Shown here: piece by piece, positions 2,856-5,500 of the stretch
How positions within the stretch are numbered: the first letter of the stretch is position 1
Layout: each line of letters opens with the position of its first letter
Sequence record: NC_003287.2
DNA from: Inovirus M13
Length of the DNA stretch: 6,407 nt
Reading direction: 5' to 3' (one strand)
Program-made: the position numbers and the translations under genes
The notes under the pieces: generated by a model
What the model was told of the DNA's origin: nothing
What the model saw: only the letters and a program-made list of their open reading frames with translations
The model's database searches: none

Positions 2856-3194
2856 ATGCCAGTTCTTTTGGGTATTCCGTTATTATTGCGTTTCCTCGGT
2901 TTCCTTCTGGTAACTTTGTTCGGCTATCTGCTTACTTTTCTTAAAAAGGGCTTCGGTAAGATAGCTATTGCTATTTCATTGTTTCTTGCTCTTATTATTG
3001 GGCTTAACTCAATTCTTGTGGGTTATCTCTCTGATATTAGCGCTCAATTACCCTCTGACTTTGTTCAGGGTGTTCAGTTAATTCTCCCGTCTAATGCGCT
3101 TCCCTGTTTTTATGTTATTCTCTCTGTAAAGGCTGCTATTTTCATTTTTGACGTTAAACAAAAAATCGTTTCTTATTTGGATTGGGATAAATAA
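2856..3194 (+). CDS. gVI: Gene VI (pVI, 112 aa), hydrophobic minor coat protein at the pIII end of the virion
   Basis: ATG at 2856 with SD AGGAG at 2843..2847; product MPVLLGIPLLLRFLGFLLVTLFGYLLTFLKKGFGKIAIAISLFLALIIGLNSILVGYLSDISAQLPSDF..., start placed 2 nt after the gene III stop. Confidence 0.95.
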   Translation: MPVLLGIPLLLRFLGFLLVTLFGYLLTFLKKGFGKIAIAISLFLALIIGLNSILVGYLSDISAQLPSDFVQGVQLILPSNALPCFYVILSVKAAIFIFDVKQKIVSYLDWDK

Positions 3195-3195
3195 T

Positions 3196-4242
3196 ATGGC
3201 TGTTTATTTTGTAACTGGCAAATTAGGCTCTGGAAAGACGCTCGTTAGCGTTGGTAAGATTCAGGATAAAATTGTAGCTGGGTGCAAAATAGCAACTAAT
3301 CTTGATTTAAGGCTTCAAAACCTCCCGCAAGTCGGGAGGTTCGCTAAAACGCCTCGCGTTCTTAGAATACCGGATAAGCCTTCTATATCTGATTTGCTTG
3401 CTATTGGGCGCGGTAATGATTCCTACGATGAAAATAAAAACGGCTTGCTTGTTCTCGATGAGTGCGGTACTTGGTTTAATACCCGTTCTTGGAATGATAA
3501 GGAAAGACAGCCGATTATTGATTGGTTTCTACATGCTCGTAAATTAGGATGGGATATTATTTTTCTTGTTCAGGACTTATCTATTGTTGATAAACAGGCG
3601 CGTTCTGCATTAGCTGAACATGTTGTTTATTGTCGTCGTCTGGACAGAATTACTTTACCTTTTGTCGGTACTTTATATTCTCTTATTACTGGCTCGAAAA
3701 TGCCTCTGCCTAAATTACATGTTGGCGTTGTTAAATATGGCGATTCTCAATTAAGCCCTACTGTTGAGCGTTGGCTTTATACTGGTAAGAATTTGTATAA
3801 CGCATATGATACTAAACAGGCTTTTTCTAGTAATTATGATTCCGGTGTTTATTCTTATTTAACGCCTTATTTATCACACGGTCGGTATTTCAAACCATTA
3901 AATTTAGGTCAGAAGATGAAATTAACTAAAATATATTTGAAAAAGTTTTCTCGCGTTCTTTGTCTTGCGATTGGATTTGCATCAGCATTTACATATAGTT
4001 ATATAACCCAACCTAAGCCGGAGGTTAAAAAGGTAGTCTCTCAGACCTATGATTTTGATAAATTCACTATTGACTCTTCTCAGCGTCTTAATCTAAGCTA
4101 TCGCTATGTTTTCAAGGATTCTAAGGGAAAATTAATTAATAGCGACGATTTACAGAAGCAAGGTTATTCACTCACATATATTGATTTATGTACTGTTTCC
4201 ATTAAAAAAGGTAATTCAAATGAAATTGTTAAATGTAATTAA
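3196..4242 (+). CDS. gI: Gene I (pI, 348 aa), inner-membrane assembly/export ATPase with N-terminal Walker A motif
   Basis: ATG at 3196 immediately after the gene VI stop (TAA 3192..3194); product MAVYFVTGKLGSGKTLVSVGKIQDK... with Walker A GKLGSGKT (about nt 3217..3240) and a membrane-spanning segment near LCLAIGFASAF. The ORF-track start at 3148 is a TTG extension overlapping gene VI. Confidence 0.93.
   Translation: MAVYFVTGKLGSGKTLVSVGKIQDKIVAGCKIATNLDLRLQNLPQVGRFAKTPRVLRIPDKPSISDLLAIGRGNDSYDENKNGLLVLDECGTWFNTRSWNDKERQPIIDWFLHARKLGWDIIFLVQDLSIVDKQARSALAEHVVYCRRLDRITLPFVGTLYSLITGSKMPLPKLHVGVVKYGDSQLSPTVERWLYTGKNLYNAYDTKQAFSSNYDSGVYSYLTPYLSHGRYFKPLNLGQKMKLTKIYLKKFSRVLCLAIGFASAFTYSYITQPKPEVKKVVSQTYDFDKFTIDSSQRLNLSYRYVFKDSKGKLINSDDLQKQGYSLTYIDLCTVSIKKGNSNEIVKCN
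3916..4242 (+). CDS. gXI: Gene XI (pXI, 108 aa), in-frame internal restart within gene I (from pI Met241); assembly protein partner of pI
   Basis: ATG at 3916 in the gene I frame (720 nt = 240 codons after the gene I start); product MKLTKIYLKKFSRVLCLAIGFASAF... Known nested gene in Ff phages; the internal initiation cannot be proven from sequence alone. Confidence 0.75.
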   Translation: MKLTKIYLKKFSRVLCLAIGFASAFTYSYITQPKPEVKKVVSQTYDFDKFTIDSSQRLNLSYRYVFKDSKGKLINSDDLQKQGYSLTYIDLCTVSIKKGNSNEIVKCN

Positions 4243-5500
4243 TTTTGTTTTCTTGATGTTTGTTTCATCATCTTCTTTTGCTCAGGTAATTGAAATGAAT
4301 AATTCGCCTCTGCGCGATTTTGTAACTTGGTATTCAAAGCAATCAGGCGAATCCGTTATTGTTTCTCCCGATGTAAAAGGTACTGTTACTGTATATTCAT
4401 CTGACGTTAAACCTGAAAATCTACGCAATTTCTTTATTTCTGTTTTACGTGCTAATAATTTTGATATGGTTGGTTCAATTCCTTCCATAATTCAGAAGTA
4501 TAATCCAAACAATCAGGATTATATTGATGAATTGCCATCATCTGATAATCAGGAATATGATGATAATTCCGCTCCTTCTGGTGGTTTCTTTGTTCCGCAA
4601 AATGATAATGTTACTCAAACTTTTAAAATTAATAACGTTCGGGCAAAGGATTTAATACGAGTTGTCGAATTGTTTGTAAAGTCTAATACTTCTAAATCCT
4701 CAAATGTATTATCTATTGACGGCTCTAATCTATTAGTTGTTAGTGCACCTAAAGATATTTTAGATAACCTTCCTCAATTCCTTTCTACTGTTGATTTGCC
4801 AACTGACCAGATATTGATTGAGGGTTTGATATTTGAGGTTCAGCAAGGTGATGCTTTAGATTTTTCATTTGCTGCTGGCTCTCAGCGTGGCACTGTTGCA
4901 GGCGGTGTTAATACTGACCGCCTCACCTCTGTTTTATCTTCTGCTGGTGGTTCGTTCGGTATTTTTAATGGCGATGTTTTAGGGCTATCAGTTCGCGCAT
5001 TAAAGACTAATAGCCATTCAAAAATATTGTCTGTGCCACGTATTCTTACGCTTTCAGGTCAGAAGGGTTCTATCTCTGTTGGCCAGAATGTCCCTTTTAT
5101 TACTGGTCGTGTGACTGGTGAATCTGCCAATGTAAATAATCCATTTCAGACGATTGAGCGTCAAAATGTAGGTATTTCCATGAGCGTTTTTCCTGTTGCA
5201 ATGGCTGGCGGTAATATTGTTCTGGATATTACCAGCAAGGCCGATAGTTTGAGTTCTTCTACTCAGGCAAGTGATGTTATTACTAATCAAAGAAGTATTG
5301 CTACAACGGTTAATTTGCGTGATGGACAGACTCTTTTACTCGGTGGCCTCACTGATTATAAAAACACTTCTCAAGATTCTGGCGTACCGTTCCTGTCTAA
5401 AATCCCTTTAATCGGCCTCCTGTTTAGCTCCCGCTCTGATTCCAACGAGGAAAGCACGTTATACGTGCTCGTCAAAGCAACCATAGTACGCGCCCTGTAG
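4220..5500 (+). CDS. gIV: Gene IV (pIV, 426 aa precursor with about 21-aa signal peptide), outer-membrane secretin channel for phage extrusion
   Basis: ATG at 4220 with SD AAGG at 4208..4211; product MKLLNVINFVFLMFVSSSSFA/QVIEMNNSPLRDFVTWYSKQSG...; C-terminal half (…VPFITGR…GQTLLLGGL…VPFLSKIPLIGLLF…) looks like the secretin domain shared with GspD/PilQ. Overlaps the gene I end by 23 nt. The ORF-track start at 4181 is a TTG extension. Confidence 0.95.
   Translation: MKLLNVINFVFLMFVSSSSFAQVIEMNNSPLRDFVTWYSKQSGESVIVSPDVKGTVTVYSSDVKPENLRNFFISVLRANNFDMVGSIPSIIQKYNPNNQDYIDELPSSDNQEYDDNSAPSGGFFVPQNDNVTQTFKINNVRAKDLIRVVELFVKSNTSKSSNVLSIDGSNLLVVSAPKDILDNLPQFLSTVDLPTDQILIEGLIFEVQQGDALDFSFAAGSQRGTVAGGVNTDRLTSVLSSAGGSFGIFNGDVLGLSVRALKTNSHSKILSVPRILTLSGQKGSISVGQNVPFITGRVTGESANVNNPFQTIERQNVGISMSVFPVAMAGGNIVLDITSKADSLSSSTQASDVITNQRSIATTVNLRDGQTLLLGGLTDYKNTSQDSGVPFLSKIPLIGLLFSSRSDSNEESTLYVLVKATIVRAL

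Follow-up and report, generated by a model that had tools for sequence, protein, structure and literature searches.

Gene XI of phage M13, nested within gene I, and its internal start at codon 241

Introduction

Gene XI of the Ff phages has been textbook knowledge since 1995, and is considered here in a 6407-nucleotide stretch of Inovirus M13 DNA (sequence record NC_003287.2; the whole stretch is referred to below as the window), where it forms the 3′ part of gene I. Its protein, pXI (also written gp11 or G11p), is the C-terminal part of the gene I protein, pI (gp1 or G1p). Both gene XI and gene X, which is nested in gene II, are counted in the "9 genes, 11 proteins" of M13 (PMC9228878).

Initiation at Met241 of M13 pI was described by Loh et al. 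in 2017: the M241L substitution abolishes gp11 expression, and gp11 is still made by a phage in which codon 23 of gene I is amber (Q23am) (PMC5408679). A plasmid encoding gp1-M241L alone fully complements the Q23am phage because the phage itself supplies gp11 (PMC5408679). Haase et al. (2022) found that plasmid-borne gene I yields G1p and G11p, both seen on blots, that His-tagged G1p co-elutes with untagged G11p, and that the two form an oligomer of ~320 kDa, ring-shaped in appearance (PMC9228878). Both proteins are required for phage assembly according to these two papers, which cite Rapoza & Webster (1995) and Haigh & Webster (1999) (PMC5408679; PMC9228878). Cys332 and Cys347 are reported to be essential and may form a disulfide (PMC5408679). 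Contact between pI/pXI and the N0 domain of the secretin pIV has been reported from genetic and cross-linking evidence (PMC8563730; PMC9228878), the periplasmic domain being the part set against N0 (PMC8563730). The f1 pIV is reported to have 15 subunits (PMC8563730), and a symmetry mismatch is suspected in the assembly complex (PMC9228878).

The segment 3916–4242 of the window is almost certainly gene XI of M13, made by internal initiation at codon 241 of gene I. The gene is long known in Ff phages and ordinary, and the practical value of this assignment lies in annotation, with little as discovery.

Identity of gene XI

Counted in the reading frame of gene I, the ATG at 3916 is codon 241, from (3916 − 3196)/3 + 1. 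Translation of 3916–4242 gives MKLTKIYLKKFSRVLCLAIGFASAF...KCN* (108 residues, stop TAA 4240–4242), so that codon arithmetic and translation agree with the earlier note, which had placed the start of a 108-residue product at pI Met241. Read from 3916, pXI is MKLTKIYLKKFSRVLCLAIGFASAFTYSYITQPKPEV...EIVKCN, with a predicted mass of 12.4 kDa and an isoelectric point of 9.5. Gene I contains only three in-frame ATG codons (codons 1, 169, and 241) and four in-frame TTG codons.

That note had also named the product as the pXI known from Ff phages, and deposited records bear this out. A coding sequence (CDS) annotated "XI; formation of the phage assembly site" in the genomes of FfAmethyst (PP430147.1) and FfLavender (PP430149.1) maps exactly to 3916–4242, and the 108-residue sequence is matched exactly by AAT27369.1, "pXI [VCSM13 interference-resistant helper phage]", and by WZB35635.1, an "assembly protein" of FfAmethyst. 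Several reference records of M13, f1, and fd, among them NC_074765.1 (M13) and J02451.1 (fd), annotate gene I without gene XI. The coordinates of gene XI and of its associated features are collected in Table 1.

Table 1. Features of gene XI and its surroundings in the window
Feature	Coordinates	Strand	Remarks
Gene I (pI/G1p, 348 residues)	3196..4242	+	ATG 3196, TAA 4240–4242; annotated CDS I 3196..4242 in NC_074765.1
Unstructured AU-rich initiation region (−30..+30)	3886..3945	+	Ensemble free energy −5.15 kcal/mol
Weak Shine–Dalgarno-like TAGGT (AGGU core 3906–3909)	3905..3909	+	6-nt spacer to ATG
Internal start codon ATG, pI Met241	3916..3918	+	Invariant in 11 aligned phage DNAs
Gene XI (pXI/G11p)	3916..4242	+	108 codons plus TAA common to gene I; pI residues 241–348
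Cytoplasmic stub of pXI (MKLTKIYLKKFSR)	3916..3954	+	13 residues, 5 basic and 0 acidic; start of helix running into membrane
Single transmembrane segment (pI 254–270, VLCLAIGFASAFTYSYI)	3955..4005	+	Top hydropathy window of pI, 17 residues
Periplasmic β domain (pI 291–347)	4066..4236	+	Cys332 (4189–4191), Cys347 (4234–4236)
3′ end of genes I/XI overlapping 5′ end of gene IV (secretin)	4220..4242	+	23 nt, different frame; gene IV start codon 4220

Conservation of the internal start

Full-length pI was used as the query for homologs, the 108-residue query having returned just two fragments owing to a word-index limit; 81 full-length pI homologs with identities of 51–67% were obtained. Position 241 is Met in 78 of the 81; no other internal Met exceeds 90% conservation, and the two that follow reach 62% and 48%. 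Two of the three exceptions have Val, encoded in both by GTG in the retrieved DNA, and both also have an ATG two codons downstream. A codon capable of initiating (ATG or GTG) is thus present in 80 of the 81 homologs, which fits selection for an internal start. An in-frame ATG taken by itself is no more than would be expected by chance; its conservation exceeds chance.

Met241 lies at a junction: pI residues 232–240 are highly variable, and residues 241–253 (M-R/K-x-T-K/R-I-Y-x-K/R-K/R-x-S/N-R) are strongly conserved. In an alignment of 11 DNA sequences, from four Ff phages and seven relatives, the ATG never varies, and the preceding 45 nt are poorly conserved. Met241 is found in nine of 10 annotated phage pI proteins (M13, If1, PEar6, IKe, I2-2, two Vibrio cyclitrophicus/alginolyticus phages, VFJ, and fs2), which share 45–66% identity. 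The tenth, from Ralstonia phage 1 NP-2014 (NC_023586.1, 601–1431), stops shortly after the cytoplasmic domain and is without a Met241 equivalent, a transmembrane (TM) helix, and a periplasmic domain; gene I/XI of this phage is either split, degenerate, or differently organized.

A methionine may be kept for reasons other than initiation, and ATG 3916 could be a coincidental, unused codon, with Met241 retained through packing in the juxtamembrane helix of pI. The residue does fall inside a predicted continuous helix (237–271), and residues 244–253 are equally conserved, so that a structural constraint is present. However, both Val homologs use GTG, the one of the four Val codons able to initiate; the product has been detected and is lost in M241L (PMC9228878; PMC5408679); and the segment has been annotated independently as gene XI. 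Coincidence is therefore an exceedingly improbable explanation, and internal initiation is preferred.

The gene records of If1, IKe, I2-2, PEar, and Vibrio phages list gene I without gene XI. Since the start-capable codon is conserved at identities of 51–67%, the nested gene is probably under-annotated throughout this clade, as judged from these alignments.

Initiation signals and the origin of the short product

The ribosome-binding site had been called weak in the earlier note, and it is. The sole complementarity to the anti-Shine–Dalgarno sequence upstream of 3916 is an AGGU, whose duplex with the 3′ end of 16S ribosomal RNA is worth −4.4 kcal/mol; the corresponding Shine–Dalgarno (SD) energies are −11.3, −9.6, −8.8, and −6.4 kcal/mol for genes X, IX, VI, and I. 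The TAGGT is the same in M13, fd, FfAmethyst, and FfLavender, and other G-containing purine stretches occur in If1, IKe, and the Vibrio phages. The SD score was tried as a discriminator of the start and rejected: 24% of gene I positions equal or beat the score at 3916 (24th percentile), the internal starts of relatives fall between the 14th and 61st percentiles, and a position so ordinary within its gene means that sequence alone is no proof of a start.

The surroundings of the codon are more distinctive. Over −30 to +30 the ensemble free energy is −5.15 kcal/mol against a gene I mean of −9.2 ± 3.5, and equally open positions make up only 8% of gene I and 9% of the genome. The AU fraction over −20 to +15 is 0.77, and a 101-nt segment around 3916 folds more weakly than 195 of 200 shuffled sequences (z = +1.49). 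Among the in-frame ATG and TTG codons, the gene I start excluded, 3916 combines the best SD score with the weakest local structure. From general knowledge of initiation in Escherichia coli, we infer that the open AU-rich context offsets the weak SD.

A weak and statistically ordinary SD would also be expected if ATG 3916 were a mere Met codon and the short C-terminal species were cut from full-length pI by a protease; the references include work from the same laboratory on transmembrane-directed proteolysis of a pI fusion protein (Guy-Caffey & Webster, 1993). However, gp11 is lost in M241L, and the Q23am phage, unable to make full-length pI, supplies gp11 (PMC5408679); together these results rule out a proteolytic origin from full-length pI. 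A cleavage site, moreover, needs no start-capable codon, and one follows the variable segment in 80 of the 81 homologs. Proteolysis is accordingly a very improbable source of the short species, and initiation at codon 241 is preferred.

The earlier note had spoken of an "internal restart". The start is indeed internal; the word "restart" is loose, as what takes place in wild-type phage is independent initiation and not re-initiation after a stop. The continued production of gp11 by the Q23 amber phage fits initiation that is independent of upstream translation.

It was also considered whether pXI might be translated from a shorter mRNA of its own, driven by an internal promoter, and not from the gene I message. 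A σ70-like pair, TAAACA-16-TATGAT, is found at 3813–3840, ~75 nt 5′ of the ATG. However, it scores 9/12, and the five promoter-like matches in 3000–4400 compare with 4.5 ± 2.3 expected by chance. Gene I under lac control on a plasmid gives both G1p and G11p on induction with isopropyl β-D-thiogalactopyranoside, which fits one message (PMC9228878). A scan of 3000–4400 found no terminator, and nothing there supports a dedicated gene XI transcript. A separate message is therefore unlikely, and would change only the source of the mRNA and not the identity of the gene. A second σ70-like pair (4025–4053, 9/12) lies 5′ of the gene IV start, the count of such pairs being no higher than in shuffled sequence. 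The entire window matched no Rfam family, and hence no known RNA element accounts for the gene XI region.

Architecture of pXI

Hydropathy places a TM segment in pXI, in keeping with the membrane-anchored C-terminal product that the earlier note had proposed. The boundaries given in the literature are 254–271 for the anchor and 272–348 for the periplasmic domain (PMC9228878). The stub that precedes the anchor is basic and free of acidic residues, which puts the N-terminus of pXI in the cytoplasm by the positive-inside rule. Gly260, within the TM segment, and both periplasmic Cys residues, 332 and 347, are invariant in the 81 sequences.

The layout of pI comprises a Zot-type P-loop NTPase domain (2–185), a linker, a TM helix, and a periplasmic domain. 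Pfam assigns PF05707 (Zot) to residues 2–185 (E 3e-53) and no family to the 108 residues of pXI, which PHROGs places as the C-terminal third of "protein I of M13". An AlphaFold model of pI, built from the 81-sequence alignment, has a mean predicted local distance difference test score (pLDDT) of 88.4. It consists of an α/β NTPase domain, one long helix (237–271), a linker, and a compact β domain (291–347) with a pLDDT of about 94. The NTPase part has fold matches in RecA and the N-domain of Neisseria Zot (2r2a). pXI is without the Walker A/B ATPase domain and retains the TM anchor and the periplasmic domain.

pXI was also modeled on its own (mean pLDDT 75.6), and this model was searched against solved structures. 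The top structural matches by two methods are the HR (homology region) domains of GspC and PilP, followed in the structure search by DotF and another PilP. Foldseek independently puts PilP and GspC at the head of its list, but its E-values (0.15–1) are not significant, and identities in the structural alignments are 7–15%. Searched as a profile against PDB sequences, the pI alignment hit 2r2a alone (E 0.085, via the Zot domain) and gave no link to GspC or PilP. With modest matches and no signal at the sequence level, the likeness is a fold-level lead and not a case of family membership.

Genome context

NC_003287.2 is a complete Ff phage genome that differs from M13 "Rutgers" (NC_074765.1) at 15 of 6407 positions, none of them within gene I (3196–4242). 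The region 3100–4400 is 100% identical to Inovirus M13 JX412914.1 and NC_074765.1 and 96.7–99% identical to f1 and fd. The open reading frames (ORFs) of the window agree with the annotated gene order II/X, V, VII, IX, VIII, III, VI, I, IV.

One of the 15 differences makes the start codon of gene III (1579) ATG in the window as against GTG in M13 "Rutgers", and three more alter residues (pIII V173F, pIII S378G, and pII M40I). Six are clustered in 37 nt at 4453–4489 (gene IV codons 78–90); four of these are synonymous third-position changes, and the other two jointly alter codon 87 (ATT Ile to AAC Asn). The cluster has the appearance of a small divergent or recombinant patch and not of random error.

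Because gene IV starts before genes I and XI have ended, the segment 4220–4242 encodes parts of three protein products. An overlap with the downstream secretin gene also occurs in If1, VFJ, fs2, and metagenomic relatives, and in IKe, PEar6, and I2-2 the two genes are separated by a 2-nt gap instead. The two homologs with GTG at position 241 (P0056, L013 about 2215; P0089, L014 about 2215) are followed immediately downstream by a secretin gene overlapping the gene I end, as in M13. The opposite strand holds no ORF of at least 25 residues within 3916–4238; a single 32-residue ORF there (4239–4337) touches only the stop codon of genes I and XI.

Discussion

The in-frame start, the deposited pXI of identical sequence, the conservation of codon 241, and the published M241L and Q23am results carry the assignment of 3916–4242 to gene XI. 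Several points weigh against it. The window itself would not single out 3916, whose SD score is ordinary for gene I, and the conservation of Met241 could also stem from a structural role in full-length pI. The initiation, stoichiometry, and function of pXI rest on published papers, and its distinct role, in the words of Haase et al., "is still elusive" (PMC9228878).

In the mechanism proposed, ribosomes would start independently at codon 241 of gene I and produce the 108-residue pXI, making use of the weak AGGU and, as we infer, mainly of the open AU-rich region. The product would lie N-in, C-out, with its basic stub, one TM helix, and a periplasmic region of ~75 residues ending in a small β domain that is presumed to contain a disulfide. 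According to published work, pXI and pI join in the ring-shaped inner-membrane complex of ~320 kDa, and both are required to assemble the filament and to export it through the pIV secretin. If the shared periplasmic domain docks on pIV N0, the nested gene would supply extra anchor-plus-docking subunits without the ATPase.

Compared with gene XI of f1, fd, and M13 (Rapoza & Webster, 1995; Haigh & Webster, 1999), the segment has identical coordinates, the same 108-residue sequence, and the same host gene; there is no difference.

Within M13, gene X in gene II (496–831) likewise begins at an in-frame codon inside its host gene, encodes the C-terminal part of the host protein, and ends at a common stop. 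The internal starts of genes X and XI probably differ greatly in strength: that of gene X has a strong SD (GAGGGGG, −11.3 kcal/mol), as against −4.4 kcal/mol for gene XI. The products also differ. pX is a cytoplasmic replication regulator, whereas pXI is a membrane protein.

pI shares its family with Zot of CTXφ (PF05707) by virtue of residues 2–185. pXI starts 55 residues past the end of this domain and has no part of it, and is thus part of a Zot-family gene but not a Zot-domain protein.

The HR proteins GspC of the type II secretion system and PilP of the type IV pilus have the same layout as pXI: an N-terminal anchor, a linker, and a small periplasmic β domain. They are inner-membrane-anchored partners of secretin N0 domains, and pI/pXI have been reported at the N0 domain of pIV (PMC8563730), a contact that a GspC/PilP-like fold fits. 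On the basis of the models, it is conceivable, though somewhat short of an even chance, that the pI/pXI periplasmic domain docks onto pIV N0 in the manner of GspC and PilP HR domains. A literature search found no paper stating an HR-domain likeness of pXI; the search was incomplete, and the idea may already be published. A further and more speculative suggestion, doubtful on present models, is that pXI would be the phage counterpart of GspC and PilP, its ATPase-free docking subunits matching the 15-fold pIV while the ATPase ring of pI is approximately hexameric. This suggestion draws on the fold likeness of a predicted model, the mixed complex of ~320 kDa and its suspected symmetry mismatch (PMC9228878), and the 15 subunits of f1 pIV (PMC8563730). 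If true, a symmetry-matching pXI would explain why pI and pXI are both essential, and the GspC/PilP-like fold offers a concrete, testable idea for the separate role of pXI. The numbers proposed for pXI and pIV against pI have a parallel in the type II secretion system, where GspC/GspD stand to GspE/L/M in a 15:6 arrangement.
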